Shown: positions 1,281 to 62,148, numbered from the stretch's first letter. The stretch: 64,000 bases of DNA from Candidatus Pyrohabitans jungbluthii (GCA_002010065.2 MTMD02000014.1:127167-191166); one strand, 5' to 3'. Notes: generated from the sequence alone by a model not told the origin. Numbers and translations are program-made.

Positions 1281-2483
1281 TCAGAAGGTGGTTAGCTCAC
1301 CCTTAATGAACATATCCGTAATTTTGGTTATATTTGCAAGATTTTCATCCACTATACCTGAGATGTCGCTCTCAATTGCGCTGAGGCTAACACCATCCTC
1401 GAGGATGAGCTGCACGCTTGCTGCCTTTGGCTGGTCTATGGGTTTGCCTATCTGCGAGAGGAGGCGCACATATACCTCCTTAACTCCTGAAACCTCGCGG
1501 GTAATCTGCTCCGCTATCCTGGGCGCGAGCAGGTTGTAGATTTTGCCTACGTGGTTTACAGGATTCTTGCCTGCCGCCGCCTCCATACTCATGTGGCGGT
1601 TAGGTGTAATTAGCCCGTTAACCCTGTTCCCCCTGCCCACGCTGCCGTCGTCACCCATCTCAGTGGAGGTGCCTGTTACAGTCAAGTAGACTGTCTTCCT
1701 CTCATAGTCATCGCCTGTGTTTAGGAAGACCTCCACCTCGCGCTCGGTTATCTTCGAGGCGAGCTTCTCTACCTCCTCCTTTATCTGCTGCACCACGCTT
1801 ATGTAGTGGTCTAGGTCGGGGACGTGCTTTGCCACCATAGCCATTGAAATCGTCAGAGCTATGCGGTCACCCTCGCGGAGACCCATCACCTTTATATCCT
1901 CCCCGCTCTCTGGGAACCTCTTCTTAAATTCATCGCTGTTCAGGTAGCGCTCTGTCTGGTAGCACAGCCTTTCAACGTCGCTGAGAGGTGCGAAGCCCAC
2001 ACCAAAAGAGGTGTCATTTGCAAGGGGCACCTGCTGAGAGCGCTTAAAAACATCCACCAGGTCTACGCTACCCTGACCAATGCGGGAATCTATAATAACG
2101 TCGCTTTCCACGTCGAGGTTTCTTACGGCGCCGGTAAGATACTCCTTAGCAGCCTTAATGGCGATTTTGTGTACAGGCACAACCTTCTCATCTACGATGG
2201 TGGTCGCTCTTCCCGAGAGCAGGATGTATATCGGCTTTATTACCTTTCCACCTCCGAACCTCACATCAGCCTGGCCGCCAACAAGCTCCACCTGGTCTGT
2301 GTTGTGGTGCATAACATAGCCAAACTCCTCGATATACTCCCTGCACAGTGCCCTGCTCACGGCGTCGGCGATGCCGTCGGCCAGGCTATCTGGATGACCT
2401 ATACCCTTCCTCTCCACAAGCTCAACCCGCTGCTCTTCCACGGGGGTGCGTACAACCTGCTCAACAAAGATATTCCGCGGCAT
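1281..2483 (-). CDS. mat: Archaeal S-adenosylmethionine synthetase
   Basis: [52 protein letters not shown]. Confidence 0.97.
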
Positions 2484-2609
2484 AACAATCCTCCTTAAAA
2501 GGGATATCCCGGGTAGAATAAATATTTTACCAAGGGAAAAGGAATTGTGGTTGAGCGGGTTAGGTATTGATTTGGTTTTTATTTTGCCTTGTAATTGTAT
2601 GTGTACACA

Positions 2610-3542
2610 TCACTTCATCGAAAACCTGCGCTGCGGTTCAATTGTGAGCACAACCTTGCCATCTTTAAACACGCGCACTATGCCGCCGCTCTGGCTCACG
2701 GTGATGCCTATGCTCCGCGTTTTTGCTGTCGTCGCTGCCACTGCAGCGTGCCTCGAGCCTAAACCGCGGGGTATGTCAACGCTGCTGGTGTCAACGTTGA
2801 GGTAAACCCCAGCGGACTCTATAATCCCCTCGCTGCTTATAACAAACACCCCATCCAGCTGAGCAAGCTCCTTGATGGTCTCCTTTATCTCTGGGTTGAG
2901 CACTGAGCGCTCTCCCACGAGATGTCCTTCGAAGGGGTTGAGGATGAGCTGCCTTGAGTTTGCCAGTATCTTCTTCGAGTCGCCTATCAGGAAGGCGGTG
3001 CCTATCATCCTGCCCTCTCTTCCTTCTTTACCTATCTCAAGGGCGATGTTCAGCACCGCCTCAAACACCTCAGGCTTGACCTCTATGTCGCGGAGGAAGT
3101 GGTAAAGCGCCAAGTCGAGGGCTTCTGCTTTTACCTCGTAGTAGAAGATGGAGTTTGCCTCTGTGTTCAGCGTCGAACCCACTGCTACAACCACATCCTT
3201 ATCGTGGATAATTCCCTTCTCAATCCCGCGCACAATCGCATCTTCAATCATCTCCGCCACGGAGCTTTTCCTTGTCAGGAGCTTGAGCACGTGCACCTCA
3301 GGCAAGCTGCGCTTCACCTCCTTGTCCACAAATTCAACTTCAAGGGTGCTTTCCGTTGCTTCTTTAAGCATATTCTGAAACAGTTCCTCTGAGGCTGTGG
3401 CGAAGATTACTGGCAAGCGCAGCCTTGCCTTTTTAAACTCTTCAAAGCTGTCCCCAGTCTCAGTTACAACTACTATTGCAGAAGCTTCAAGCTTTTTGGC
3501 TATATCAATGGCGCTGTTGATAATTACCTCTACATGCTTCAT
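2610..3542 (-). CDS. dacZ: Diadenylate cyclase DacZ (PK_C-like N-terminal domain + DisA_N domain)
   Basis: ELAQLDG (DGA-like) and GLGSRHAA (RHR-like) DAC motifs; N-terminal alpha/beta domain. Confidence 0.9.
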   Translation of the reverse strand: MKHVEVIINSAIDIAKKLEASAIVVVTETGDSFEEFKKARLRLPVIFATASEELFQNMLKEATESTLEVEFVDKEVKRSLPEVHVLKLLTRKSSVAEMIEDAIVRGIEKGIIHDKDVVVAVGSTLNTEANSIFYYEVKAEALDLALYHFLRDIEVKPEVFEAVLNIALEIGKEGREGRMIGTAFLIGDSKKILANSRQLILNPFEGHLVGERSVLNPEIKETIKELAQLDGVFVISSEGIIESAGVYLNVDTSSVDIPRGLGSRHAAVAATTAKTRSIGITVSQSGGIVRVFKDGKVVLTIEPQRRFSMK

Positions 3543-3575
3543 TAATTAAGAATTCCAGGCCGCACAATATAAAGC

Positions 3576-4544
3576 TTAGGTAAGCACCTCTCCCAGCTTC
3601 TCCGCAAGCAGAAGCACGTCGTCTCTGCTCATGCTGAGCACATCCAGCTTTTTAAGCTCAACGCAGAAACCATGCTCAAGAAAGCGGTCATAATTTGGAC
3701 AGGTGGTAATGAGGCTCTTTCCAAGGTCTGTTATTAATCCACAAGAGCGCGCTCTTCTGGCAACCTCCTTCGGCTCAGGGTGCAGCACGCCTACACATAC
3801 CCCTCGCCTCTCAGTGTGAACAACATTGGGTAGCCTAGCCTTGAGAAGTGAAGCAAACCCCGTCAATCGTTCTACTACGCTCGGAGCAATTTTGAGCTCT
3901 TCCACAAGCCCAGCGGCGAGAACACCGCTGAGGCGGCAAGCTTTAATTACCTTTGCCGCTCGCCTCAAAAACTCTTCATCGTTGGTTGAGATAAAACCGC
4001 CTGCGGTGAGATTGGCGATTTTCGGGTCTCCGGTGGAGCAGATAATTACATCGGCATTCTCGCCCTTCGCGAGTTTTTTATCCCCTATGGCTGAGGAGGC
4101 GTCCTCGATTAGGAGAACCCCATACTCCTGGCAAATCCGGTGAATCCCGCGCAAATTCTGCTCAGCGATGTAGCCAGCGAAGGAGGTTATAATTAGAGCC
4201 TCAGGCTTCTCGCGCTCAAGCGCCTCCTCAAGTACCTCAAGGCGAATCACCCCCAGCTCGGTTTCAACCTCGCACACCTCTTTACCCAGAAGCTGGGCAT
4301 ACGCCTTAAAGCCCCTCCATCCCCCCTGGTCGGGAAGCATCACTTTGTTTTCCACGGCGCTTAACGCAGCCAGCGCGGCGCAGCTTCCACTCGCCACCAG
4401 CTTGGCGAATTCGTGGCGGGTGAGCTTCGCTATAGCCTCACTTGCCTTCTCCACCATTTCGGCGCTAGATTCAACGTCCAGGGACATAGCCGCCTGGGAT
4501 ATCGCCAGCTTCGCCGCCTCGGAGGGCCTCCTGTGGGGAAACAT
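3576..4544 (-). CDS. PLP-dependent transferase (fold type I), function unknown
   Basis: LIEDASSAIG, STGDPK (putative PLP lysine), GGFIST. Confidence 0.7.
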   Translation of the reverse strand: MFPHRRPSEAAKLAISQAAMSLDVESSAEMVEKASEAIAKLTRHEFAKLVASGSCAALAALSAVENKVMLPDQGGWRGFKAYAQLLGKEVCEVETELGVIRLEVLEEALEREKPEALIITSFAGYIAEQNLRGIHRICQEYGVLLIEDASSAIGDKKLAKGENADVIICSTGDPKIANLTAGGFISTNDEEFLRRAAKVIKACRLSGVLAAGLVEELKIAPSVVERLTGFASLLKARLPNVVHTERRGVCVGVLHPEPKEVARRARSCGLITDLGKSLITTCPNYDRFLEHGFCVELKKLDVLSMSRDDVLLLAEKLGEVLT

Positions 4545-4595: not shown

Positions 4596-5348
4596 ATGTC
4601 GGGCAAGCTATACCTCGTGGGAATAGGACCTGGAAGCCTGGAGCATGCAACGCCTCGAGCGATTGAGGCAATTAAAGAGAGCGATGTAGTGGTCGGCTAC
4701 AAAAGCTACCTGAAGCTTGTGGAAGACCTGCTCTCGGGCAAAGAAGTGGTATCCTCGGGGATGCGCAAGGAGGTGGAGCGGGCTAAGCTGGGGGTGGAGC
4801 TTGCGCTTCAGGGGAAGAAGGTGGCAGTGGTGAGCAGCGGGGACCCTGGTGTTTATGCAATGGCAAGTGTTGTGCTGGAATACCTCGCCGAAAATTCAGC
4901 CAAGCTGGAGGTAGAGATCATCCCCGGCATAACTTCTGCCAATGCCTCCGCCGCGCTGCTGGGCTCGCCCCTGGGTAACGACTTCGCAGTAATAAGCCTC
5001 AGCGATCTCCTTGTGCCATGGGAGGAGATAGAGCGCCGCATTGAGTTAGCTGCTAAGGGCGACTTTGTTATTGTGCTGTACAATCCGAGAAGTTCCAGGA
5101 GAAACTGGCAGCTTGACAAGGCGAGAGAGATTGTGCTCAGGTATCGCGAGCCAGAAACGCCAGTTGGCATTGTAAAGAACGCCTACCGCGAGGGTTGCAC
5201 CGTCGAAGTTACCACCCTGGGTGAGATGGATACAGAGCAGGCGGACATGCTCACCACCGTCATAATAGGCAACTCCCAGAGCTTTGTTTACGATGGCAAA
5301 ATCATCACCCCCCGCGGGTATAAGAGGAAGTACTCTCTGAGGGGGTAG
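4596..5348 (+). CDS. cbiH: Cobalt-precorrin-3B C17-methyltransferase
   Basis: VGIGPG, SSGDPGVYAMA, DFAVISLSDLL, YNPRS, ITPRGY. Confidence 0.95.
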   Translation: MSGKLYLVGIGPGSLEHATPRAIEAIKESDVVVGYKSYLKLVEDLLSGKEVVSSGMRKEVERAKLGVELALQGKKVAVVSSGDPGVYAMASVVLEYLAENSAKLEVEIIPGITSANASAALLGSPLGNDFAVISLSDLLVPWEEIERRIELAAKGDFVIVLYNPRSSRRNWQLDKAREIVLRYREPETPVGIVKNAYREGCTVEVTTLGEMDTEQADMLTTVIIGNSQSFVYDGKIITPRGYKRKYSLRG

Positions 5349-5349
5349 C

Positions 5350-6108
5350 ATGCTCTGGGTGCTCGCAGGGACAAGCGACGCAGGCGAAATCATCTCAAGG
5401 CTCTCTAAAGAGGGTTTTGAGGTTGTTGCCAGCGCTACCACGCAGTATGGAGCAGAGCTTGCGAAGCGTGCTGGTGCAGGCGAGGTTGTGGTTGGGCAGC
5501 TTAGCTTTGAGGAGATGCTACGCCTTATCAAAGACAGGCACATTCGCGTTGTTATCGATGCCACCCACCCCTTCGCCGCTGAGGCGAGCGAGAATGCGAT
5601 GAGGGCGGCAAAGGTTGCGGGAGTGGAATACATCAGGTACGAAAGGGAGAGGCTTAGCCTAGCCGGCGAGAACATACGCGAGGTTGAAAGCTTTGAGGAG
5701 GCTGCAAAAGCGGCGTCGGAGCTTGGTGGTGTTGTCTTCTATACCGCCGGGATAAAGAATCTCCCCACCTTCCTTAAGCACTGCACATCCCGTGTTGTTG
5801 TTAGGGCGCTTCCCTTCCCGGAGGTAATAGCTCGCATAATTGGGCTGGGGGTTAGCCCAGAGGATATAATCGCTATGCATCCCCGCTTTGACAAAGAGCT
5901 GAACAAGGCGCTGCTTAAAGCGTACAAAGCAGAGGTGCTGGTAACCAAGGAGAGCGGCAGGGAGGGGGGTGTAGTGGAAAAGTTAGCCGCAGCCCGCGAG
6001 GTAGGCATCCCCGCGATAGTTGTGCGCCGCCCAAGGTTAGCGTACCCGAAGGTGTGTGAGAGCGTGGAGGCGGTTGTGCAGGAGATTAAAAAACTATCTT
6101 TAACGTAG
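5350..6108 (+). CDS. cbiJ: Cobalt-precorrin-6A reductase
   Basis: LAGTSD, IDATHPFA, VTKESGREGG. Confidence 0.95.
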   Translation: MLWVLAGTSDAGEIISRLSKEGFEVVASATTQYGAELAKRAGAGEVVVGQLSFEEMLRLIKDRHIRVVIDATHPFAAEASENAMRAAKVAGVEYIRYERERLSLAGENIREVESFEEAAKAASELGGVVFYTAGIKNLPTFLKHCTSRVVVRALPFPEVIARIIGLGVSPEDIIAMHPRFDKELNKALLKAYKAEVLVTKESGREGGVVEKLAAAREVGIPAIVVRRPRLAYPKVCESVEAVVQEIKKLSLT

Positions 6109-11349: not shown

Positions 11350-11721
11350 TTAGGTTCTGACTTTTCTAACAAAATTTTTTATACATTCGAGGGTTTCTAT
11401 GCTTATGATGTGTTCTATTCGGTGGGCATCCTTTCTTGCAACTTCGGGCGGGACCTCCATTATCTCTAGGAGCTTCACTATCGCTTCGTGTCTGTCTTTG
11501 ATATTCCTGGCTATTTTCTCCCCCTCCTCGGTTAAAGATATATAGGCACGCTTTTCGTAAATCAACAGTCCCATTTTGCTCAGCTTGTGCACCATCTCCG
11601 TAACTGATGGTGGTTTCACATTTAGGGCGAGTGCTATATCTTTTATCCTGACATAACCTTTATCTCTTTTTATCTCATAAATAATCCTCAGATAATCCTC
11701 TGCCCTTCTGCTGAGCCTCAT
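11350..11721 (-). CDS. DtxR/MntR family metal-dependent repressor
   Basis: EDYLRIIY, KPPSVTEM, LTEEG, RHE, AHRIEH. Confidence 0.92.
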   Translation of the reverse strand: MRLSRRAEDYLRIIYEIKRDKGYVRIKDIALALNVKPPSVTEMVHKLSKMGLLIYEKRAYISLTEEGEKIARNIKDRHEAIVKLLEIMEVPPEVARKDAHRIEHIISIETLECIKNFVRKVRT

Positions 11722-11733
11722 GCACACACCAAT

Positions 11734-11782
11734 TTAGGTTAACCTAATTAGGAATTCCTAAATTAGGAATTCCTAAATTAGG
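11734..11782. promoter_or_regulatory. Tandem array of DtxR-type operator palindromes
   Basis: TTAGGTTAACCTAA (11734-47), TTAGGAATTCCTAA (11748-61 and 11763-76), plus a TTAGG half site (11778-82). Confidence 0.85.
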
Positions 11783-11846
11783 TGTTTAAATATTTTTGCC
11801 TAAATTCTTCCCCAAATTTTATAACCCAAGCTGGGCAGGAATACTC

Positions 11847-14021
11847 ATGGGTAAAAGGATTGCCTTTTTCATGGACTATGATAAGTACGGTCGCGAAGAG
11901 GCGCCGGCGATACTCCAGTTCATTCAGACGCTGCGCAATTATGGTCACGACGTTGATTTCATGACCTCTGAGAGGGAGCTTCTGGAGAGGCTTCCTCAGG
12001 GTTATGACGTGGTGGCACTCTCTGCATTCAGCAGCTTGGAGTTGAGAGACATACTTAAAACGGCGATAAGGGTTAAGCAGGCGGATTCTCGCGTGGTTAA
12101 CGTACTCGGCGGGCACGGCGTTGTTGAGAACGCTTCAAAGCTAATCCTCGCCACGGGCATAGATGCAGTTGTGGAAGGCGAGGCAGAGAACACCTTTCCT
12201 TTGATGCTTAAGCACCTGGAGAAAGCTAAGCAGAGTATGAGCTTACCTCCGCGTCATGCCTCCTTATCCCTGCGTGCGGAAAAGCTTGCCTACCTAGATG
12301 AAGAGGCGGTTGAGCTTCTCAGAAAAAACGAGTTCAGGAGCCCTGTTACTGAGGAGAAGGCAGAAGAGATTCTTGGTGAGCATTTTACGAGGAGGATAAA
12401 CTACCGCGGGAAGGAGCTTGAGATAGAGGTTCCCATCACAGGGGTTTATGTAAAAACCCGTGAGGGCAAGGTGTTCTACTCGGGCTCAGCCCACGATGAG
12501 GAGGTCATAGATAGAGCGTACAGAAGGAACGAGGAGCGTCTCGGCAATGCTATATCCAAGCGTGAGTTTTCTCGTTTCATCCACGCCCACCCCACAAGGC
12601 AGGAGCTGGAGGAGAACTTCACAGGCTACCCCTGGGATATCGTCGAAGCGAAAGGGTGGCGTGCCTTAAGCCTGTACCTGCAGCGGGGGTGCAACTGGGG
12701 CAGGTGCGAGTACTGCAGCATAACCACGCCAGCGGGGCGAAGCATAAGCGTGGAGAAAGTGGTGGCGCTTCTCAAAGAAGCAACGGAGCATGGCATAGCT
12801 CAGGTAACCTTTGACGACGACCAGTTTGTGCAGAATGAGCGCTGGGTGGCTGAGCTGTGCAGGGGTATTCTGAGGGAGGAGCTCAACCGCAAGCTTAGGT
12901 TCGGGGCAATGCTGCGCGTCGACGCCGTGAGAGACCTCTCCCTGCTCAGGCTGATGAAGCAAGCTGGCTTTGCAAAGGTTCAGGTAGGTTTGGAGAGCCT
13001 TGTGCCGGAGAAGATTGCGTACTTCAGAAAAACCCTGCCCGGGAGGGAGGAGGAGTACATCCAGAAAGCCTTCGCTTTAATCAATGCATGCATGCGTGCT
13101 GGTTTAGATGTTGGAATCTTTGTGATAACCACAAGACCCAAGCAGAGAGAAGCCCTGGAGGAGGTGGCACGCGAAATTGAAGCCCTGCTCCAGCTTCTTC
13201 TCTCGCTCTACCGCACGCATCGCAGACTCCCCACAATAAGCTTCAACGACATGCTCATGGCATATCCTGGAGCGCCGCTGCTGAGGAAGGAGAAGTATAA
13301 GCGCATGCTTGTTCCAGTGGCGATCGCAAACGGCGAGCTTCTGACGCTGGAGGTGCCCTACATTTTCGAGCTAAAGAGCATGCAGCTTGCAAATTACCTG
13401 GCTATTCTAAGGGAGATGGCAAAGCGTAGAGGTATGCCCCCGGAGCAGTTAAACGAAACCCTGGAGCATTTTGAGGACCTCATCGCTGCGCTAAAGGTGG
13501 CGGCGGAGCACTTGGGAAGCGAGGTCTCAGCCTGCCTCGAATACCTCTCAGGCTTAAGTGAAGGCGAAAGGAGGGAGCTGGCACAGCTTTTGAATCTGGA
13601 TTCGCCCAACCTTGAAAAAGCCTTGCTCAGCGGTGCTGTGTCAATAGCCGAGCTAAAGCGCGCGGTTGAGCGCACAGGCGAGGAAAATCTCAGCATACTG
13701 TGCGAACGCCTCCCGACCAAGCTAAAAGAGGCAAGCACGAAGCTTGAGGAAAGGTGCAGGGAAATGGAGCACCTTCTCTATGCTCTGGAGAGTGAGGTTT
13801 ACATGATTGTGAAGACCCACCTCAGCAGGGTTAGAGCAGAGCTTCGCAGCCTTGAGCAGAGAGGCGAGGCATTTCATGAAAGTGTGCACAGAATAAGAGA
13901 GGAATCTCAGGAGCTTCTCAACAAATACTACCCCTACTACCTTGCAAGAACCTCGCTTCAGAACCTGCTTGCGTGGCTTGAGGAGTACGAGAGGGTTACC
14001 CCTCCCTCTCAGAGGGGTTGA
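11847..14021 (+). CDS. B12-binding radical SAM protein with long helical C-terminal extension
   Basis: LGGHG, VEGEAE (B12-binding domain), RGCNWGRCEYC, VGLES; start moved to the ATG at 11847. Confidence 0.82.
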   Translation: MGKRIAFFMDYDKYGREEAPAILQFIQTLRNYGHDVDFMTSERELLERLPQGYDVVALSAFSSLELRDILKTAIRVKQADSRVVNVLGGHGVVENASKLILATGIDAVVEGEAENTFPLMLKHLEKAKQSMSLPPRHASLSLRAEKLAYLDEEAVELLRKNEFRSPVTEEKAEEILGEHFTRRINYRGKELEIEVPITGVYVKTREGKVFYSGSAHDEEVIDRAYRRNEERLGNAISKREFSRFIHAHPTRQELEENFTGYPWDIVEAKGWRALSLYLQRGCNWGRCEYCSITTPAGRSISVEKVVALLKEATEHGIAQVTFDDDQFVQNERWVAELCRGILREELNRKLRFGAMLRVDAVRDLSLLRLMKQAGFAKVQVGLESLVPEKIAYFRKTLPGREEEYIQKAFALINACMRAGLDVGIFVITTRPKQREALEEVAREIEALLQLLLSLYRTHRRLPTISFNDMLMAYPGAPLLRKEKYKRMLVPVAIANGELLTLEVPYIFELKSMQLANYLAILREMAKRRGMPPEQLNETLEHFEDLIAALKVAAEHLGSEVSACLEYLSGLSEGERRELAQLLNLDSPNLEKALLSGAVSIAELKRAVERTGEENLSILCERLPTKLKEASTKLEERCREMEHLLYALESEVYMIVKTHLSRVRAELRSLEQRGEAFHESVHRIREESQELLNKYYPYYLARTSLQNLLAWLEEYERVTPPSQRG

Positions 14022-19436: not shown

Positions 19437-19671
19437 TTAGCTTCGCTCCACACTCGCTGCAGAATTTGAAGAATGGCTCATTTTTGGCACCGCACCTTCT
19501 GCAGGTTATCGGGCGAACAAGCTCAAAGGCGTCGCACTCTCGAGCACGCATATCCCGTGACAGGGCGCAGAACATGCTCAGCTCTGCACCATTGAAGTTC
19601 CACTTTACTATTAAATTGGAGCAGAAGATGCACTTGCTTGTGACCTGGGCTATGTCGCGGAGGTTTGTCAT
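19432..19671 (-). CDS. Small zinc-ribbon protein
   Basis: CIFC, CRRC...CSEC. Confidence 0.7.
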   Translation of the reverse strand: MTNLRDIAQVTSKCIFCSNLIVKWNFNGAELSMFCALSRDMRARECDAFELVRPITCRRCGAKNEPFFKFCSECGAKLR

Positions 19672-20786
19672 TACTTCTCCTTCTTCTGGAGATTTTTAAG
19701 TACTTTTTCCACATACTCTGCAACCGCCTCTTCTACGCGTGGCTTAAAGTACTCCAGCCTCTCCTTCGCTTCTTTGGATATCTCTGGCGCGCTGTGTGTG
19801 AACACCACGCGGGGGTCACGCTCTGGCTCAAGCGCTTTGCTACCTTGGAGCACATCAACGTCGCTGAAGGTTCCCAGAAGCTCTCTCCCCGCGTGCCTCA
19901 CCTCTTCCTCCACTTTTCTGCCGTGGCGGGTGCCGAACATGGAGAAGAGGGGGAACTTTGTTATCCCGTTCGCACCCGCGAGGAGCGCAACGCCTATGTT
20001 GGGGAGCTGGTCCACCCAGGTGCCTGAGATTATCTTCACCTCAGGGAAGCTTATTCTCACCGCTGCTATCACCCCTGCCTGGTACAGCGAGGCTGGCGGG
20101 GGAGAGTTTTCATAGCGCGTGCCCCTGTGGGGGTTGAGGGAGTAGATGGTAACCCTGTCCAACTTCAGCTCCTGAATTAGCTCAAGAAGCGTGTAGGTGT
20201 CGGCTACGCTCTCCCCCAGACCCAGGATTATCGTAATCCCTGTTGCATAGCCCATCTCCTTCGCTGTAATAAGCATGCGCTTTATTGGAGCTAGAGGTTT
20301 GCCAGGCACAATCTCGCTGCGAAGCTTCTTGCTCACGCATTCCACGCTTCCAGTTACACCTTCCACCGCTCTGCCGAGCTGCTCAAGCTCTTCGCCGCTG
20401 AGCACACCCACATTGAGCCACACCTTAGACTGCGCTGCATAGGCTACCATCTCCGCAAGAAGGCGCAACTCTTCTAATGTATAAGCGCCGTACCCTCCTG
20501 AGAGGAACTCCACCTCCCAGCCGAGCCTGCGCATAAGCTCCGCCTCAGCGAGGATTCGCCAGGGTGCGCGCTTCGCCTTTTCAGCCTCCCTCAGCCTTTC
20601 TTTCTGCTTCGCCATGTAGCAGAAGGCACAGCTTGCGACGGAGCACCACCAGGAGAGGAAGATTGCCCTCTCCAGGGTGACGTAGCTGCCGTGGTGTTTT
20701 AGCGTTAGCGCATTCGCCTCTGCCAGCGCCTCGAGTAAGTGCTCAGAATCGCTGAAAAGCTGGGAGACCTCTTTCGGGGTGAGCAT
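19671..20786 (-). CDS. Radical SAM protein (biotin-synthase-related)
   Basis: CSVASCAFC (Cx4Cx2C), SGG, IILGLGE, LNPHRGT, AGAN. Confidence 0.82.
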   Translation of the reverse strand: MLTPKEVSQLFSDSEHLLEALAEANALTLKHHGSYVTLERAIFLSWWCSVASCAFCYMAKQKERLREAEKAKRAPWRILAEAELMRRLGWEVEFLSGGYGAYTLEELRLLAEMVAYAAQSKVWLNVGVLSGEELEQLGRAVEGVTGSVECVSKKLRSEIVPGKPLAPIKRMLITAKEMGYATGITIILGLGESVADTYTLLELIQELKLDRVTIYSLNPHRGTRYENSPPPASLYQAGVIAAVRISFPEVKIISGTWVDQLPNIGVALLAGANGITKFPLFSMFGTRHGRKVEEEVRHAGRELLGTFSDVDVLQGSKALEPERDPRVVFTHSAPEISKEAKERLEYFKPRVEEAVAEYVEKVLKNLQKKEK

Positions 20787-20912
20787 ACATAAGCAGGTGA
20801 GGCTATCCAGTAAAAAGCTGTTTGTTCATCTCCAGCCATCCAGTCATAAAGATATAAATATCCAAAAATATTATAAAAGTGTCTACACCGTAATATTCAT
20901 AAGGCGATAAAA

Positions 20913-22292
20913 ATGAAAGTAATTGAAAATCTTGAAGTAAGAAATTATAGAGGTATTAAAAATATTTCCTTCAAATCAAATTCTGTAAATATATTGGTTG
21001 GAAGAAATAACACAGGAAAATCGGCATTATTAGAATCAATAGCATTTATATTGTCATTTAACAAAAAATTTAAGGATTCAATAGGAAATGACCTATTGGA
21101 TTATATAACCGAAAAATATGAGGAATCGTATTTGGTGAATATAAATGGCAAAACTGCAGAAATTAAAGCAGAGATTAAAGATAAAGAGTACACTATTTCC
21201 ATTGAATATTATTCTGATGGTCTGCCACAGGATGAAAGACTGAATTATATAATAGAGTATTTTGAAAATTTAATAAATAGGTGGTATCGCAATTACATTG
21301 AAAAGGAGGAAAGATATACTGAGAATATCACCAATGACGTAATTAATACTTTTTTTAATGAACTAAAAAATATAAATTTAAAATTAAAACAATCAGATCT
21401 AAAAATTTTGGAAAACAATATCAAGAATAGATTATTAAGAAAAAAAATTTTTAGAACTATGGATAGATATATAGAATCTGAAATACAAACTGAGTTAGAT
21501 AAAGTTAAATCGCAAACGCAAAAAGATATCTACAATTTGCCAAAATTGATTATCACTGCTTATGAAAATTCACAAATAGTAGGATTGTATATACTTTTTG
21601 CAGAATCATTAGATTTAATAGAAAAATTTGAAAATATTAGGTCAAAAAAAGTAATTACGCTATTTTCATTCCTATCCAAATATAAATATTTTGAAATAGA
21701 TGATGAATATGAAATAATTCCATTTAAAGGTGATTTAAAGCATATTCCTCTACTTTTTGATTTTGAAAGGGTTACATATGATATAGAAGATTTACATGAT
21801 TCTGTGGTAGAAACAGGAAAAATTAGGCGTGCAGTAGATTTACTCAAAGAGAGAGATATTATTGATGATATTAGAAAAACTGAGAGAGGTCTTATGGTAT
21901 TTCCGAAACAATATGATGAGCCATTGCCTCTATCTTCAATGGGTGATGGTTTCTTAGCGTTGCTTAAAATCATATTTTTAATTGCTATAGCTGAGAGAGG
22001 AGTAATTTTAATAGAAGAACCAGAAGTGTCTCTTCACCCGGGATATTTAGATATAATTGCTGAAGAAATTGTATTAAATTCTGATAAAGTACAATTTTTT
22101 ATATCTACCCACAGCTTTGATTTAATTCAGGCTATTTTAGAAAAGGCTGAAAAATATAAAAAGCTGGATGAAATAAATATAGTAAGACTCCATTATAGAG
22201 AAGCTGCAAATCAGATTTATCCTGAAGTCTTGGATGGGGAGATGGCTAAGGAAGAAATTGATGAGATAGGAACAGATCTGAGGCAAACATAA
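20913..22292 (+). CDS. ABC-type ATPase (AAA_15/AAA_21), putative defence ATPase
   Basis: NYRGI, GRNNTGKS, LSSMGDG signature, IEEPE, STHS. Confidence 0.88.
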   Translation: MKVIENLEVRNYRGIKNISFKSNSVNILVGRNNTGKSALLESIAFILSFNKKFKDSIGNDLLDYITEKYEESYLVNINGKTAEIKAEIKDKEYTISIEYYSDGLPQDERLNYIIEYFENLINRWYRNYIEKEERYTENITNDVINTFFNELKNINLKLKQSDLKILENNIKNRLLRKKIFRTMDRYIESEIQTELDKVKSQTQKDIYNLPKLIITAYENSQIVGLYILFAESLDLIEKFENIRSKKVITLFSFLSKYKYFEIDDEYEIIPFKGDLKHIPLLFDFERVTYDIEDLHDSVVETGKIRRAVDLLKERDIIDDIRKTERGLMVFPKQYDEPLPLSSMGDGFLALLKIIFLIAIAERGVILIEEPEVSLHPGYLDIIAEEIVLNSDKVQFFISTHSFDLIQAILEKAEKYKKLDEINIVRLHYREAANQIYPEVLDGEMAKEEIDEIGTDLRQT

Positions 22293-22314
22293 TATTTAAG
22301 AGGGGGAAATATTA

Positions 22315-23022
22315 ATGAAGATATTCGTATTAGAGGGTCCTAATGACGTAGTTTTTATAGAATCGATTTTAAATCATCACTTTAAAAAAACAAATATACC
22401 AAAAGCCTCTAATAATAAAATAAATTTACGAAAAAGTATAAAAACGCTGATGAGTAAACTTAGAGACTCTAAAGAGTATAATTATCTTAAAAACGAATTT
22501 GGAATAATTATTTACGGTGACAACGGTAAGGATAACGTAATCTCAAAAGTTATACCCAGATTATGTTATGATTTAATAGGAAAAAATCCTCCAAAACAAA
22601 TTGAATTTCTTGTAGTCTTAGATGAGGATGGCGAACCACTTAGTAATATAATGGTCAGAATTAAAGAGGAGATTATTAATAGGAATATGCCAGATTCGGA
22701 AGTATTAGATATAAATAGTAGTAACATCAAAGTTCAATTCAATTCTGATGACAGTTATTGGATTTATATTCGAGTGTGTTTAATTCCTCATAGTTTGGAA
22801 TATCAGATTATACATAAAGCAATTGAAACAAAAATATCATTAAGCAAAAGACAACAAAGAAAACTACTAAACAGCAAAGAAGATGAGGCATTAAGAGAAA
22901 TTGCAAATTTACTGGATGTTTCAAAGGAAGAATTGTTCCGACTTAGTGTTTTTGATGGTTGGTTTCTTGGTAGCGAATGGTACGACGGGATAATTCAGAA
23001 AATCGGAAATTTTATTAGTTAA
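22315..23022 (+). CDS. TOPRIM-like nuclease partner (DUF3226/DUF4435-like)
   Basis: VLEGPND, VLDED (DxD), SLE motifs; downstream of the ABC ATPase. Confidence 0.65.
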   Translation: MKIFVLEGPNDVVFIESILNHHFKKTNIPKASNNKINLRKSIKTLMSKLRDSKEYNYLKNEFGIIIYGDNGKDNVISKVIPRLCYDLIGKNPPKQIEFLVVLDEDGEPLSNIMVRIKEEIINRNMPDSEVLDINSSNIKVQFNSDDSYWIYIRVCLIPHSLEYQIIHKAIETKISLSKRQQRKLLNSKEDEALREIANLLDVSKEELFRLSVFDGWFLGSEWYDGIIQKIGNFIS

Positions 23023-23077
23023 CTTACGATTATTTCTTTTTTTATGTTGTTTTAAGCTAATTATTATGACTGGAAGA

Positions 23078-23677
23078 TCATCTCCAGCCGGTGATAATAA
23101 AAACAGGATTCATTGCCTTCATCATTGTAACGCCCTCGCGCACCTTCTCGGCTCTTGCAAAGCTGGCAAGCACCACCTCCTGCTCAAAGTTCGCTGCCTC
23201 GAGGGCAGCGCACGCTTTATGGAGCGTCTCCAGGGTTATCGCAGTTATCACCACTCGGCCCCCAGGATGCAGCTTTTTTGCTATTGCTTCGATTATCTCC
23301 TCCATCCTGCCCCCGCTTCCGCCTATAAACACCCTGTGTGGCGCCTCGAGGTTGCGCAGTGCCTCGGGAGCCTCGCCCTCAACTACGCGCGCCTCCCCGT
23401 CACCAGGCACCGCATTGCTGGCAACCACGCCGAACTTCGCCAGGTTTCGCCTCAGAAGCTCCAACGCTTCCCCACGCTTCTCCACAGCGTAAACCCTCGC
23501 CCCGAGCAGAGCCGCCTCAACGGTAACGCTACCCGTGCCCGCGCCTATGTCGTAGAGCACGTCACCGCGACAAAGCCTGAGCTTCGCCAAAGCTAAGCTG
23601 CGCACCTCCTCCTTGGTCATGGGCACATTGCCGCGCTCGAATGCTTCGTCGGGTATTCCCGGCACTGTACGCTTCAT
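23078..23677 (-). CDS. cbiT: Cobalt-precorrin-6B C15-methyltransferase (decarboxylating)
   Basis: PMTKEEVR, DIGAGTGSV, FIGGSGG, NPVFII. Confidence 0.94.
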   Translation of the reverse strand: MKRTVPGIPDEAFERGNVPMTKEEVRSLALAKLRLCRGDVLYDIGAGTGSVTVEAALLGARVYAVEKRGEALELLRRNLAKFGVVASNAVPGDGEARVVEGEAPEALRNLEAPHRVFIGGSGGRMEEIIEAIAKKLHPGGRVVITAITLETLHKACAALEAANFEQEVVLASFARAEKVREGVTMMKAMNPVFIITGWR

Positions 23678-24279
23678 TCCCACACCACCATTATGCTGTT
23701 CCCGCCAAAGCTTTCCTTTGAGACCTCCTCAAGCGTCGCCACGACGACACGTTCCTCTGGTAAGCTCAAGCTTTCGCACACGGCGCAGCGACGGTTTCCC
23801 CAGCGGGCGAGTAGCGCTTTCGCAACCTCTTGGGGCAGGTTTTTTGCATCGCACAATATAACAATCTTCTCCTCTTTGCGAAGCTCCTTCAAGGCATCGT
23901 CGCGCCCATGTAAGCTTATAACCCTCGCCCCGTTCCACGGCTCCTTAATCTTGGCAAAGCAGAGCTGCACTGAGCTTATCCCTGGGATCACCTCAAGCAT
24001 ATCCTCGGGGAACCTCTTCTTGAGAAACCGGAGGATGCTGAACAGTGTGGCGTCGCCAGAGGTAAGTACCGCGACGTCTTTGCGAGAATGCTTCTCAATA
24101 AACTCCACCACCTCTTCCAGGTTGCGGCTTATCACCATTCTTGGCTTTCCGCGGGGCGCAAACCTCAGCGCAGTCTCGCCGCCTGCAAAGGCAGATGCAC
24201 GAGCGATGGCGCGCCTTGCCGCCGGGGTTAGGTACTCCTCACTTCCAGGGCCAACGCCTACAACAAGTATCTTCCCCAC
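23674..24279 (-). CDS. cbiE: Cobalt-precorrin-7 C5-methyltransferase
   Basis: VGVGPG, SGD, PGISSVQ, SLHGR. Confidence 0.92.
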   Translation of the reverse strand: MGKILVVGVGPGSEEYLTPAARRAIARASAFAGGETALRFAPRGKPRMVISRNLEEVVEFIEKHSRKDVAVLTSGDATLFSILRFLKKRFPEDMLEVIPGISSVQLCFAKIKEPWNGARVISLHGRDDALKELRKEEKIVILCDAKNLPQEVAKALLARWGNRRCAVCESLSLPEERVVVATLEEVSKESFGGNSIMVVWE

Positions 24280-25343
24280 CTTATCTGCCTCGCTTTTTCG
24301 TCGCTACCTATTACCTCTCCTTTCAGGTTAATTAGCGCCGTGCCTATGTTAACTTTTCCTCCCACGCGCTCCTCAGCGCGCTGTGAAGCTCTCTCTGCGA
24401 TGCGGTTAAGCACCTCAGCAAAGCCTTCGCTGAAAAGCAGAGCTACCGCCTCTTCTGCTGTAGTTGAGTTAAGCACCTGCTTTATCAGTTCTCGGGAGGC
24501 GCCCGCCTCAGCGGCGTATGCAGCGATGGTTTCGAGGCGGGCATCTGCAACCTTGCTGTGGGTGTGAAAGATGCCAGCGGCGACCTTAACGAGCTTGCCC
24601 ACATGCCCATAGAGCAGCACCCCTTTAATCCCTCTCTCAGCGCATTCGTCGAGCATATAACCAACGTAGTTGCCGCACTGCACAATTGCATCCTCTGGTA
24701 CGCCCCTCTTGAGAGCATTCCTCTCGCCTATTCTCCCTGGAGTGAGCACAACCTCTGCGAAGCCATTAGCAAGGGCAACATCGATCTGAGGCACCAGGGA
24801 GCGCTTGAATGCGTCCTCACTCCAGGGTTCTACTATACCACTCGTACCCAGGATTGAAATACCTCCCACTATGCCAAGCTTTGGATTCATTGTCTTCTGG
24901 GCAAGCTCTCTACCTTTAGGCACAGAGACCACAACCTCCACCCCACCCTCTGGCAGAGCTTCCCTCACCGCACTGCGTATCATCTCTCTGGGCACGGGGT
25001 TAATTGCAGCCTCGCCCACGGGTATCGCTAGTCCAGGCTTAGTCACCACGCCTACGCCCTCACCGCCCCTTATCCTGACATCTTCGCCTTCGCATTTCCT
25101 CACCTCTGCGCATATCAGCGCGCCGTTGGTCACGTCGGGATCGTCGCCGGCGTCCTTAACCACGCAGGCTCTGGCTTTATCTCCGTATCCTTCCAGCAGC
25201 GCGATGCTGAGGCTCACCCTCTTGCCAGAGGGCAGGGCAACGCTTACCCTTTCCCTTCTGTCTCCGGTCAGGAGCAGCGCCGCTGCCTTCGCGGCTGCGG
25301 CTGCGCAGGTGCCAGTGGTAAAACCTTTTCTGAGCTTCTTCAT
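24258..25343 (-). CDS. cbiD: Cobalt-precorrin-5B C1-methyltransferase
   Basis: GFTTGTCA, KDAGDDPDVT, AINPVPR, GISILGTSG, HTHS. Confidence 0.97.
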   Translation of the reverse strand: MKKLRKGFTTGTCAAAAAKAAALLLTGDRRERVSVALPSGKRVSLSIALLEGYGDKARACVVKDAGDDPDVTNGALICAEVRKCEGEDVRIRGGEGVGVVTKPGLAIPVGEAAINPVPREMIRSAVREALPEGGVEVVVSVPKGRELAQKTMNPKLGIVGGISILGTSGIVEPWSEDAFKRSLVPQIDVALANGFAEVVLTPGRIGERNALKRGVPEDAIVQCGNYVGYMLDECAERGIKGVLLYGHVGKLVKVAAGIFHTHSKVADARLETIAAYAAEAGASRELIKQVLNSTTAEEAVALLFSEGFAEVLNRIAERASQRAEERVGGKVNIGTALINLKGEVIGSDEKARQIRWGRYLL

Positions 25344-29079: not shown

Positions 29080-31540
<2,461 letters not shown>

Positions 31541-31544
<4 letters not shown>

Positions 31545-31798
31545 TCTGAAGCCCCCTCAAGCTTTGCTAGGCGCTTTCTGACCCTCATAAGATGTTTAAT
31601 CCTTTTCATTCTCAGTTTTTTGAGGATTTCTTGGTCTATCTTTACAAGGTCGTACAGTTCTGAAAAAATCTCAAAGGCTCGTTTCGGTGTCAGCTCCCTA
31701 AGGACTCTCTTCTTGTAGTCCCTCTCCCACCGAAAAAATGCCTGGTAGCGTTCATTAGCAGAGTAATCCGTCTTTGCCTCTTTAATTTTTCTAGGCAT
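31541..31798 (-). CDS. Small basic protein, putative partner/antitoxin of the nucleotidyltransferase
   Basis: 4-nt overlap with the downstream NTase; LTPKRAFEIFSELY. Confidence 0.6.
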
Positions 31799-31884
31799 AG
31801 CTCTTCCTGCCTCAATATAAGTTGCAGTGCCTTATATAAAAATCTTGGCGGAAAGTGAAGATTGCCATCAGGTGAGGTGATCCA

Positions 31885-48134: not shown

Positions 48135-49623
<1,489 letters not shown>

Positions 49624-49736
49624 GAGCACGGCACCGCTAACCGGGCACCAAATCTGCCGAGCCTGTTCCAGAAAGTTTAACACGTTAGGGCTCGGGTAAT
49701 GAGGTGGGCGCACACATAGTGTGCGTCTGTTAATCC

Positions 49737-49809
49737 GGGCCCGTAGCTCAGTTGGAAGAGCATCCGGTTTGCAGCCGGAAGGCCACGGGTTCAAATCCCG
49801 TCGGGTCCA
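49737..49809 (+). tRNA. tRNA-Ala(TGC)
   Basis: Cloverleaf, anticodon TGC at 49770-72, G3:U70 pair, no encoded CCA. Confidence 0.97.
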
Positions 49810-49956
49810 CTTCACCCTTTCATCATCATGGTCATCTAGTGACTGAGGCCCGCAATCTCGCGGTTGCGGGTCAATAGGCCGAGAGCGATTATGATAATCG
49901 CTCGCTGAGGCCCCGCATAGGTCTGGCTGAGTGCAATCTGACTCTGTGCCCCAGTA

Positions 49957-53009
<3,053 letters not shown>

Positions 53010-59915: not shown

Positions 59916-59923
59916 GTGTGCCC

Positions 59924-60958
59924 ATGAGGATCGCTGTGGTCTATCTCACAAAGAATGGAGCAAGGCTTGCGGAGCGCCTCGTAAAAGCACTGCCGGAGCA
60001 CGAAGTCGAAGCCTTCGGGAAGAACGCCAGTTTTGGTACAGAGCTTTCCAAGCCGCTTTCACAGTTCTTCGCCGAAGCTTTGCGCAGCTTCGATGCAATT
60101 GTTTGTATAATGGCTCTGGGGATAGTGGTGCGCACCTTAGCAAAGCATCTCACCCACAAGCGCACAGACCCGGCGATAGTTTGCATCGACGAGCTTGGCA
60201 GGCACGTGATTAGTGTTGCCTCGGGGCACAGGGGCGCGAACAGCTTAGCCAAGCTCATCGCCTCCCGTATAGGAGCCACGCCTGTGATAACCACCTCCAC
60301 CGACGTTCAGGGCTTAGCGAGCGTTGAGGAGATAGCGGAGCGGTTTAATCTTGCGATAGACGAAGGCGACCTGAAGGCGGTTAACGCGGCGATAGCCAAT
60401 CATCGTCGCGTCGCTATTTTCACCGACCTGGCGATAGAGGTAGAGCCGTTTGAGAGTCATCCCATTGTGGAGCTTTCTCGCGAAGAATGCGACGCGTGCG
60501 TGGTTATTACCAATAAGCTCGTTCAGCTCCCGGCTAAGCCTTGTGTGCTTCTAAGACCAAAGAATATCATCCTGGGCATAGGGGCAAGGAAGGGCATTAA
60601 AAAGGAGAAGGTGCTCTCTGCAATATCTCGTGCCCTGCGCGAGGCTGAGCTGAGCATGGCCAGCATTAAGGCTCTTGCGACGATACCCCAGAAGGCAGAG
60701 GAGCCGGGAATAGCTCGCGCCGCAGCCTCGCTGGGCTTGCCCATTGTCTCTGTGCCCATTGATGAAGTTAAGCGGGTGGAGGAGCGCTTTCAGGGCAGTG
60801 AGTTTGTTAGGCGCAGCGTAGGCATAGCTGCTGTGGCAGAGCCCTGCGCCTACATAGCCTCGGGGAAGGGGAAGCTGCTCCTGAGCAAAAGAGCCTACGG
60901 CGGTGTTACAATCGCAATAGCGGAGGAGACGAGAGATGCTGAGCACAGGCATAGCTAA
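59924..60958 (+). CDS. cbiG: Cobalt-precorrin-5A hydrolase
   Basis: MALGIVVR, DPAIV, SGHRGAN, PVITTSTD, VAEPCA. Confidence 0.94.
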   Translation: MRIAVVYLTKNGARLAERLVKALPEHEVEAFGKNASFGTELSKPLSQFFAEALRSFDAIVCIMALGIVVRTLAKHLTHKRTDPAIVCIDELGRHVISVASGHRGANSLAKLIASRIGATPVITTSTDVQGLASVEEIAERFNLAIDEGDLKAVNAAIANHRRVAIFTDLAIEVEPFESHPIVELSREECDACVVITNKLVQLPAKPCVLLRPKNIILGIGARKGIKKEKVLSAISRALREAELSMASIKALATIPQKAEEPGIARAAASLGLPIVSVPIDEVKRVEERFQGSEFVRRSVGIAAVAEPCAYIASGKGKLLLSKRAYGGVTIAIAEETRDAEHRHS

Positions 60959-61730
60959 ACTCGACCGCATGCTGGGCGGAGGCTTTATCCCGGGCACAAG
61001 CGTGGTGGTGCTTGGAGCCACAGGTATAGGAAAGACCCACCTGGGCTTAGCCTTCGCCAACGCTGGCTTAAAGCAAGAAGGGAAAAGGGGCGCCATTTTG
61101 GATTTAACTCTACGCGGGGACTCGCAGCGCCACCGCGAGTATGCTCAGCGCCTTTTTAACTGGGAGCTGGAAACGCCAGCTGAGCTCGAATCCTTCACCT
61201 TGGGCGACGGACGACTGCTGAGGCTGCTCGCCAGCGAAGAAGCGCTGCCAGAGGGTGCGCTGAACCGGAGCCTTCCCAGGTTACTCCGCTTCCTGTATGG
61301 CAGCTTCGCTTCCGGGGTTAAGCGTCTGGTTGTGGACGGGATTGAGCCTCTGGGCACAGCGCCCCTGCAGGAGGAGGTGCTCGCCTACCTGCAGCGGATG
61401 GTGCGCAAGAGCTACGACTGGCTCGCCAGGGAGGCGCTGAGAGAGCGCTTCTTTGCAAGTCGCGAGCTAGTGGCTGAGCGAAGCTACGACGCCAGCGAGA
61501 TAACCATAGTGTATTTAGTAACCACGCAGGAGAGCCTTCTCAGCGAGTTGATGAAGCGGGGGCTGAGCAGCTCAGGCATGGAGGCGAACGCCACCACGGT
61601 GATCCTCATGGGGAGGGTTATGGATAGTAAAAGCGTCAGGCGCGCTCTCTACGTGGCAAAGCACCGTGGCGCTGAGTGCAGCGATGAGATAGCTGAGTTC
61701 AGGATCACAGACCGTGGGATAGAGATGTAG
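60936..61730 (+). CDS. KaiC/RecA-superfamily ATPase
   Basis: STGIAKLD, GATGIGKT, VVDG, KHRG. Confidence 0.82.
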   Translation: MLSTGIAKLDRMLGGGFIPGTSVVVLGATGIGKTHLGLAFANAGLKQEGKRGAILDLTLRGDSQRHREYAQRLFNWELETPAELESFTLGDGRLLRLLASEEALPEGALNRSLPRLLRFLYGSFASGVKRLVVDGIEPLGTAPLQEEVLAYLQRMVRKSYDWLAREALRERFFASRELVAERSYDASEITIVYLVTTQESLLSELMKRGLSSSGMEANATTVILMGRVMDSKSVRRALYVAKHRGAECSDEIAEFRITDRGIEM

Positions 61731-61927: not shown

Positions 61928-62148
61928 AATATTAATGGGAAGGTTAACGAATTCGGGATTTACCTAACATAGCATATAGAGGAATCTCACAGGGTTATTG
62001 TACTTGAAATTAAATGCATTTTAATTAAAAAACATTCGAATAATTTCAATATTTTTTAATTGATTTCAAAAACCTCTAAAAATGTGAAATTATTTAAGAA
62101 TATATAAAAATTCGTGAAATTAAAACATGCAAAATGTAGGAGTTATAT

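Follow-up and report, generated by a model that had tools for sequence, protein, structure and literature searches.

How did two strongly AT-rich genes come to lie between cbiT and a radical SAM gene of the archaeon Candidatus Pyrohabitans jungbluthii, and what might they do there? Here, we investigated this locus within a 64,000-nucleotide (64-kb) stretch of DNA (GCA_002010065.2 MTMD02000014.1:127167-191166), referred to below as the window, with positions counted from its first letter. A first-pass annotation made from the sequence alone had described 20826-23089 as a transposase-free cassette with terminal repeats that carries an ABC ATPase and a TOPRIM protein as a PARIS/OLD-like defense pair. 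All coordinates in that annotation were exact. In our analysis, the locus looks like an apparent mobile insertion cassette whose cargo is a distant archaeal branch of a candidate ATPase-TOPRIM system.

A foreign AT-rich block at the 3′ end of cbiT

The window is archaeal, as it contains a 16S-tRNA-Ala-23S operon and encodes the RFC large subunit, Dph6, gyrase B, and scattered cobalamin genes. On the minus strand, the host order runs from 25343 down to 23078 through cbiD (24258-25343), cbiE (23674-24279), and cbiT (23078-23683), with cbiD and cbiE upstream of cbiT, and continues with a radical SAM gene of the PRK06267 type (19671-20786, read from 20786 down to 19671). Between cbiT and the radical SAM gene, the composition switches abruptly to AT-rich DNA, as had been described previously. 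A maximum-likelihood two-state segmentation places this block at 20846-23130, with a GC content of 0.280 inside and 0.556 outside. Its left edge is 8 nucleotides (nt) from the direct repeat described below, and its right edge lies about 40 nt beyond the repeat, within the AT-rich 3′ end of cbiT. The GC content at third codon positions is 0.20-0.23 in both cassette genes vs 0.65-0.71 in cbiT, cbiE, the radical SAM gene, and gyrB. There is no comparable AT-rich island elsewhere in the 64-kb window.

The block is flanked by a direct repeat, TCATCTCCAGCC, at 20826-20837 and 23078-23089. These are the sole two exact copies in the 64 kb, with a single one-mismatch copy at 27119. The bases immediately outside the repeat differ (T at 20825 and A at 23077), which limits the direct repeat to exactly 12 nt. 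The right copy is the native host copy, as its minus strand encodes the final three codons and stop of cbiT (G-W-R-stop), and the left copy duplicates this 3′ end. The five closest CbiT proteins are 93, 78, 79, 74, and 74% identical and all stop at one aligned position; the 93% relative represents a cluster of 5 sequences. Those at 93, 78, and 79% terminate in GWR, as does the CbiT of the window (...ITGWR); the 78% relative carries the NCBI name Candidatus Pyrohabitans sp., Hydrothermarchaeota. Because the relatives share this ending, the 12-mer belongs to the host and cbiT was left intact. The first-pass annotation had read the repeat in the same way, as the last codons and stop of cbiT duplicated by an insertion that leaves the gene undisrupted, and the comparison with relatives bears this out.

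We therefore consider it very likely that the block is foreign low-GC DNA that was inserted with duplication of a host target. The cassette itself is self-contained and 2,240 nt long. The insertion was probably recent, because the repeats are perfect and the codon composition is unameliorated, and for this reason occupied and empty sites may still coexist in nature. Without the insert, the radical SAM gene would start 39 nt past the cbiT stop; it now lies 2.29 kb away behind an antisense cassette. The DNA that separates them is rich in A/T runs, and transcription of the radical SAM gene probably depends on a new promoter. Outward-facing TATA-like sequences in the AT-rich left end of the cassette may provide one.

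Inverted ends adjoin the direct repeats

Just inside the 12-mers is a perfect 11-nt inverted repeat, TCCAGTCATAA, located at 20839-20849 on the plus strand and 23064-23074 on the minus strand, at distances of 1 and 3 nt from the respective 12-mer. At up to one mismatch, this motif has no copies in the 64-kb window beyond the two terminal ones. Direct reading also gives a symmetric parse, in which the first 10 nt of the 12-mer are the duplication and the terminal inverted repeats are 14 nt long (20836-20849, plus strand; 23064-23077, minus strand) with 12/14 positions matching. Each end then consists of 3 nt plus the perfect 11 nt. Both the inverted repeat and this parse had been given in the first-pass annotation and are correct.

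We compared these features with chance levels using block shuffles of the window. A 12-nt direct repeat with copies 0.5-10 kb apart was present in 200/200 shuffles. The direct repeat alone is unremarkable; its combination with the adjacent inverted repeat is remarkable. Among 860 real direct-repeat pairs of at least 10 nt in the window, the TCATCTCCAGCC pair has the longest adjacent perfect inverted repeat, at 11 nt, followed by a runner-up of 8 nt. The longest adjacent inverted repeat in the 200 shuffles was 10 nt, and 11 nt was reached in none of them.

A third, degenerate copy of the terminal motif, TCCAGTAAAAA, is found in host DNA at 20806-20816 on the plus strand. It matches 9/11 positions; the left terminal copy is 33 nt to its right, and the left direct repeat 9 nt to its right. 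At up to two mismatches, the 64 kb contain four extra plus-strand matches to the terminal motif, TCCAGTAAAAA among them, and no extra minus-strand match. Simple arithmetic from these 64-kb counts gives an expectation of about 0.0075 for such a copy within 60 nt of either end. Furthermore, TCCAG, the outer 5 nt of the terminal motif, is also present within the duplicated 12-mer. The target thus resembles the cassette end in two respects, which would suit either a transposase that prefers end-like targets or a site-specific recombinase. A further likeness, between GTCATAA at the left end and GTGATAA in the host right flank, is 4 nt out of register and was dismissed as chance. A literal full-text literature search for the termini returned, among the matches listed, mammalian, adeno-associated virus, and animal-virus work and none on insertion sequences.

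The cassette is a two-gene operon led by an ABC ATPase

The cargo consists of two open reading frames (ORFs; at least 50 amino acids, coding strand) on the plus strand, at 20913-22292 and 22315-23022, separated by a 22-nt gap. Inspection by eye found a TATA-box-like element, TTATAAAA, at 20871-20878 on the plus strand, about 38 nt 5′ of the ATPase start, and AGGCGAT at 20902-20908, 4 nt 5′ of the ATPase ATG. These are a probable promoter and ribosome-binding site belonging to the cassette. GAGGGGG stands ahead of the start of the second gene. Downstream, a run of seven T residues (23037-23043, plus strand), 14 nt past the second stop codon (23020-23022), is a probable archaeal oligo-T terminator. 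Judged from these sequence signals, the promoter-like and terminator-like elements suggest a self-sufficient operon.

The first gene encodes an ABC ATPase of 459 amino acids, as originally annotated, with Pfam matches to AAA_15 (9.7e-27) and AAA_21 (1.5e-20). The ATPase has an 84% relative on a 1,638-nt contig. We aligned 36 of 120 matches, picked by eye among the higher-scoring ones, nearly all of which cover 99-100% of the query. Invariant among these 36 relatives are G30/N32/N33/G35/K36/S37, M343/G344/G346/F347, E369/P370/E371, H375, and T399/H400; the Walker A, signature, Walker B, and H-loop residues are all intact in the window protein. A search of the PDB with the family profile gave 9n69, an AAA ATPase, at 7e-13 and Thermus OLD (6p74) at 1.4e-12. 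In the same list, PtuA, a retron ATPase, Rad50, and GajA outrank the PARIS ATPase AriA, whose structures rank 29th at 2.7e-5.

The second gene encodes a predicted OLD-type TOPRIM nuclease

The second gene (22315-23022, plus strand), which begins 22 nt past the ATPase stop, encodes a small protein of 235 amino acids. The family is rare. An exhaustive search of 1.84 billion entries recovered 61 representatives at E ≤ 1e-3, 33 at ≤ 1e-10, and 9 at ≤ 1e-30, and a word-based homologue search returned only the protein itself and one 79% relative, which is on a 3,598-nt contig. Our family alignment (n = 31) contains the query and 30 of the 61 representatives, picked by eye as near full length; the other 31 are mostly fragments or partial sequences and were excluded. 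Residues E7, D11, F14, G71, D103, E162, and W222 are invariant across the 31 aligned sequences, and the conserved motifs are EGxND, YGDNGK, LDxDG, and IPxSLExQ.

AlphaFold gave a confident model of the small protein, with a predicted local distance difference test score of 94.7 and a predicted template modeling (TM) score of 0.90. The model would place E7 and D11 in the β1-α1 loop, G68 and G71 past strand 2, D103xD105 past strand 3, and S160xE162 where the first helix of the C-terminal helical part begins. In Burkholderia OLD, a two-Mg site is formed by E400, E404, an invariant glycine after β2, D455xD457, and T506xE508, the last of these in helix 1 of the helical domain (PMC6755086). Between the family alignment and the model, the conserved residues of the small protein correspond one-to-one to this two-metal site.

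A Foldseek search with the model indicates the same relationship. The top match is 6nk8_A, the C-terminal region of Burkholderia OLD, with an E-value of 1.2e-3, a probability of 1.00, and TM scores of 0.43/0.49. It is followed by Pyrococcus horikoshii PH0156 (2p62_A; probability 1.00, TM 0.52) and Xanthomonas OLD (6njv; probability 0.99), and most other listed matches are low-TM nucleotide-binding folds. By sequence, the top PDB match of the family profile is again 2p62 (E 0.014), with EGxxD...DxD aligned. Phmmer with the single small protein gave only noise against the PDB. Sub-threshold Pfam matches to DUF3226 occur in 11/31 family members and to OLD-like_TOPRIM in 1/31, at 0.025; a homologue from a Desulfurococcales genome, described below, scores 21.6 bits for DUF3226. 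Atlas neighbors of the small protein include clusters with DUF3226 and with OLD-like_TOPRIM.

Alignment and model together identify the partner as a predicted OLD-type TOPRIM nuclease. Its two-metal site is complete, and the counterpart of OLD K562 was not located. The TOPRIM-like character that had been suggested from EGxxD and DxD motifs is thus corroborated by fold as well as by motifs, and we are highly confident that the cargo is a pair of an ATPase and an OLD-type TOPRIM nuclease. In the C-terminal part, single family members gave weak matches over residues ~175-215 to RHH_1 (0.0069), DUF6290 (0.028), and the BrnA antitoxin (0.07). These matches hint that the helical part binds nucleic acid in the manner of the controller-protein-like helical domain of OLD.

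Related gene pairs in other archaea

We scanned genome contigs of 185,579 species representatives, a set without the host genome, with a family profile built from a 10-sequence alignment. Three loci were recovered. The first (L001) is in a Desulfurococcales metagenome-assembled genome (MAG; JAMOPC010000491.1), with the ATPase at 2369-3766 and the small gene at 3783-4514, separated by a 16-nt gap. The second (L002) is in a Thermoplasmata MAG, with the ATPase at 56-1330, the small gene at 1332-2015, and a 1-nt gap. The third (L003) was rejected as a false positive, with 32 residues matched and the region occupied by glycosyltransferase and epimerase genes on the opposite strand.

Counting the window, the ATPase gene is immediately 5′ of the small gene in 3/3 loci, with gaps of 22, 16, and 1 nt, and the gene pairing is conserved. 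The pair also exceeds its flanks in AT content at each of the three loci. In L001, the pair comes immediately after two features at 137-2214, a type I restriction R-subunit fragment (T1R_D3-like/Helicase_C) and a YgjP-like metallopeptidase; this is a defense-island setting unlike the housekeeping operon of the window. Searches of plasmid and phage collections with tblastn for the small protein and blastn for the whole cassette returned no match.

A possible antiviral role for the pair

By family resemblance to a candidate system, an antiviral defense role for the pair is reasonably probable. By analogy with OLD, PARIS, Gabija, and the HEC/PDC candidates, the ATPase would be the sensor and regulator, and the two proteins may form a complex. 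On infection, the ATPase would allow the two-metal TOPRIM nuclease to cleave nucleic acid, such that either the virus or the infected cell is stopped. The substrate of the predicted nuclease could be DNA, as for OLD, or tRNA, as for AriB, a TOPRIM nuclease that cleaves tRNA (PMC12409363). Payne and colleagues group ATPase-TOPRIM pairs beside OLD, Gabija, PARIS, and Wadjet (10.1101/2024.01.29.577857).

PADLOC, a check that the first-pass annotation had proposed, gave a divided answer. For the ATPase, the best model is PDC-M38A (PDLC04608) at 1.5e-29, with matches to three more PDC-M38A models and to HEC-01A models at 2.9e-19. The small protein of the window gave no corresponding partner model. 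Among the 31 members of its family, the PDC-M38B model PDLC04620 matches 10/31 (best 1.3e-5), six further B models match fewer, and retron RT-Toprim and mad4 models match three each (E ≤ 1). The specific suggestion of a PARIS-type pair was not upheld. AriB models are matched by 0/31 family members at E ≤ 1, and membership in PARIS was therefore rejected. AriA models match the ATPase, at 5.1e-27 and 5e-26; these models are 373 and 304 long, as against 374/304 for the generic Pfam AAA_15/AAA_21 models. The Pfam name of the AriB partner is DUF4435, and the small protein of the window has no AriB-type Pfam match at E ≤ 10.

How the cassette arrived

Inverted ends that abut a duplication of host DNA are a signature of transposition. 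We scanned 66 ORFs of the window, made up of 64 of the 72 non-overlapping ORFs of at least 80 amino acids (the 8 omitted overlap the rRNA operon) and 2 further ORFs. Neither the cassette nor these 66 ORFs encode a transposase, integrase, Cas1, or other recombinase family, which matches the earlier description of the cassette as transposase-free. Given inverted ends, a target duplication, and no encoded recombinase, transposition in trans is the most likely route. An enzyme supplied in trans would recognize the 11-14-nt inverted ends and transpose the cassette into the short cbiT-radical SAM spacer (39 nt); the insertion duplicated 10-12 host nucleotides, the cbiT stop codon among them. A foreign ATPase-TOPRIM cassette inserted by a transposase supplied in trans is our best overall explanation, and we regard its standing as evenly balanced. 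The narrower proposal that such a transposase acted on these inverted ends is tentative and falls just short of an even balance.

Several observations weigh against this explanation. The inverted repeat is short, at 11 perfect nt, and the direct repeat is 12 nt vs the 10 nt required by the symmetric transposon parse, so two extra identical bases would have to be chance (1 in 16). No transposase was found in the window. The ends are known from a single copy, with no other at up to one mismatch in the 64-kb window and none in L001-L003. L001 has no inverted ends; the pair there is surrounded by an imperfect 22/30 direct repeat that was matched by 1/200 shuffles and is suggestive only. A blastn-short comparison of the window with L001-L003 found no shared non-coding ends. 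Because L001 lacks inverted ends and the non-coding ends are not shared, the ends are not a property of the gene family and would have been acquired locally. Other points concern the cargo. The small protein has no Foldseek match at E ≤ 0.001, its DUF3226 (PF11536) score of 16.4 bits (E 0.0079) is under the Pfam gathering cut-off of 27, and it matches no PADLOC TOPRIM-partner model at E ≤ 1. The PDC systems are 145 untested candidates, predicted from genes embedded in known systems by “guilt by embedding,” and HEC-01, an ATPase and TOPRIM pair, gave no protection in the assays of the authors (10.1101/2024.01.29.577857).

We weighed several other routes of arrival. A small circle carrying the same 12-nt core and two inverted 11-nt arms could have integrated site-specifically through a tyrosine or serine recombinase encoded elsewhere, with the 12-mers as attL and attR cores instead of a target duplication. 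This is unlikely but deserves serious attention, as the repeat covers a gene 3′ end, a classic choice of integrative elements; the arms of the re-circularized element would make a dyad around the core; and both TCCAG in the core and TCCAGTAAAAA 9 nt to its left fit a target resembling the element's own site. However, the overlap regions of tyrosine recombinases are 6-8 nt, and the arms here are 16 nt apart, too far for a dif-like or typical tyrosine-recombinase core. A dif site has 11-nt inverted arms and a 6-nt spacer (PMC2958812). By direct reading, the host right flank also lacks a matching inverted arm at the mirror position, and there is no integrase in the cassette or window. The related idea of Xer/dif-type capture by the host XerA recombinase, as in IMEX-like elements, is extremely improbable. 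The 11-nt terminal repeat does have the length of a dif arm, and the CATAA/TTATG cassette ends had been likened to bacterial dif arms in the first-pass annotation. Yet when partners were sought 4-10 nt away, the best one for the left arm matches 4/11 positions and the best one for the right arm 6/11, scores within the bulk of 3000 random 11-mers (mode 5), so the proposed half-sites are no better than random sequence. Very improbable as well is a casposase (stand-alone Cas1) acting in trans on the cassette as a non-autonomous casposon-like element. Casposons insert at gene 3′ ends (aEF-2, tRNA) and have inverted ends and target duplications, and the Aciduliprofundum casposase integrates any DNA with its flanking inverted repeats, the last five nucleotides sufficing (PMC9939771). 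The duplication reported there is 15 nt vs 12 or 10 in the cassette, however, and neither the cassette nor the window has cas1 or polB.

Illegitimate or microhomology-mediated integration at a chance 12-nt identity would make the inverted repeat coincidental or otherwise used, and the cassette would not be a mobile unit. The abundance of 12-nt repeats in all 200 shuffles fits this explanation, as do the related pairs, which form AT-rich two-gene islands without inverted ends. On the other hand, a perfect 11-nt inverted repeat 1-3 nt from both repeat copies occurred in 0/200 shuffles, and the ends are symmetric, with 3 nt plus 11 nt per side in the 10-nt parse; we judge this route to be quite unlikely. 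An assembly artifact, in which low-GC DNA was joined into a high-GC genome as a chimeric contig, is the least probable explanation of those considered. Relatives of the host proteins are largely metagenomic, and a truncated, 100%-identical ATPase (277 amino acids) is present on a separate 4,180-nt contig. Against an artifact, both junctions are precise and carry the same 12-mer, and 12 nt is shorter than assembler k-mers. Furthermore, the identical small protein is on 5 contigs and the identical full ATPase on 3, and neither cbiT on one side nor the downstream spacer on the other is damaged. As a separate observation, the contig break inside the cassette that yields the truncated identical ATPase could mean that the cassette is in part of the population only. 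Finally, the locus could be an archaeal mobile element of an undescribed kind, a minimal defense cassette that moves by itself or homes to end-like sites without a classical recombinase. The TOPRIM nuclease might make a 10-12-nt staggered cut that leads to the duplication, or homing might be suggested by TCCAG in the target and the 9/11 end copy 33 nt away. We consider this a long shot.

Other features of the window

Cobalamin genes occur in at least three clusters: cbiH and cbiJ (4596-6108), cbiD/cbiE/cbiT (23078-25343), and cbiG (59918-60958). There are also several KaiC-like ATPase genes, at 341-1183 and 60936-61730. The rRNA operon (48135-53008) has the order 16S-tRNA-Ala(TGC)-23S, with no 5S rRNA above the Rfam threshold in the window.

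Right after gyrB, a lower-GC patch (0.43 at 31001-32000) contains a gene for a 243-amino-acid DUF2204/DUF6036/AbiEii-like nucleotidyltransferase (30813-31544, minus strand) and, just upstream, a family-less 85-amino-acid ORF (31541-31798). Together, these two may act as a toxin-antitoxin or abortive-infection pair. Between the divergent genes for an MntR-like repressor (11350-11727, minus strand) and a B12-binding radical SAM protein (11796-14021) lies, at 11746-11782, a perfect tandem of 2.5 copies of a 15-nt palindrome-like unit, AATTAGGAATTCCTA, that resembles an operator. GC is also low (0.42) in the MntR and DUF2325 genes. Lastly, 62001-63000 has lower GC (0.41) and only a family-less 93-amino-acid ORF (62490-62771, minus strand).

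Significance of the cassette

If the ends are real transposon ends, the locus is a clean case in which a transposase-less cassette carries an immune gene pair in an archaeon that is deep-branching and of hyperthermophile type. It would illustrate how defense genes can settle by themselves in a housekeeping operon, away from any defense island. If the locus is instead a minimal defense cassette of the undescribed kind, immunity genes would spread between distant archaeal phyla without a classical recombinase. The small protein defines an archaeal branch of OLD-type TOPRIM nucleases that is both rare and unannotated. It also ties orphan DUF3226 and the solved but unexplained PH0156 structure to ATPase-coupled nucleases, and the conserved metal-site residues listed above are the ones to mutate.

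Comparison with known systems

In its architecture, the cassette may be an archaeal counterpart of the bacterial “mobile insertion cassettes” (MICs), which reportedly were first described in work on MIC231 of Bacillus. The bacterial qnrD/qnrS2 MICs and Tn3-derived elements are described as non-autonomous elements with passenger genes. The cassette shares with MICs short inverted ends, a flanking target duplication, passenger genes, and the lack of a transposase inside. It differs in its archaeal host, in its candidate defense-pair cargo, and in that no cognate insertion sequence or second copy is known for it. A full-text literature search found no archaeal MIC with a candidate defense pair.

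Among the defense systems, the OLD family has in common with the cassette pair an ABC ATPase and a TOPRIM domain with a helical domain, and the residue set E, E/D+4, G, DxD, and [T/S]xE is conserved. However, OLD is a single polypeptide, whereas the cassette has two genes with a stop codon and a 22-nt gap between them, and the TOPRIM sequence similarity is near the detection limit. Gabija and Class 2 OLD differ in that no UvrD-like helicase gene adjoins the pair; the cassette has two ORFs, and its flanks are cbiT and the radical SAM gene. PARIS shares the arrangement of an AAA_15/21 ABC ATPase followed by a separate TOPRIM nuclease gene; its trigger is a phage anti-restriction protein, and its outcome is tRNA cleavage. 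HEC-01 and HEC-04, which are embedded in Hma systems, likewise combine an ATPase with a TOPRIM effector, and the metal site of that effector is the one found in OLD. No HEC-01B model is matched by the small protein, however, and HEC-04 differs in being a fusion.

DUF3226, represented by PH0156 of Pyrococcus horikoshii (PDB 2p62), is both the best profile match in the PDB and a structural match of the small protein, with all Pfam matches below the gathering score. A full-text literature search for DUF3226 returned no match, and it is a family without a described function. Judged by sequence similarity, both genes would point to PDC-M38 as the closest system, a name that a full-text literature search found in no searchable text. 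Since the small protein of the window lacks a PDC-M38B match at E ≤ 1, the cassette pair is at best a distant archaeal branch of PDC-M38. The likeness lies in the two-gene arrangement of an ATPase with a small partner and in the match of component A to the ATPase of the window.

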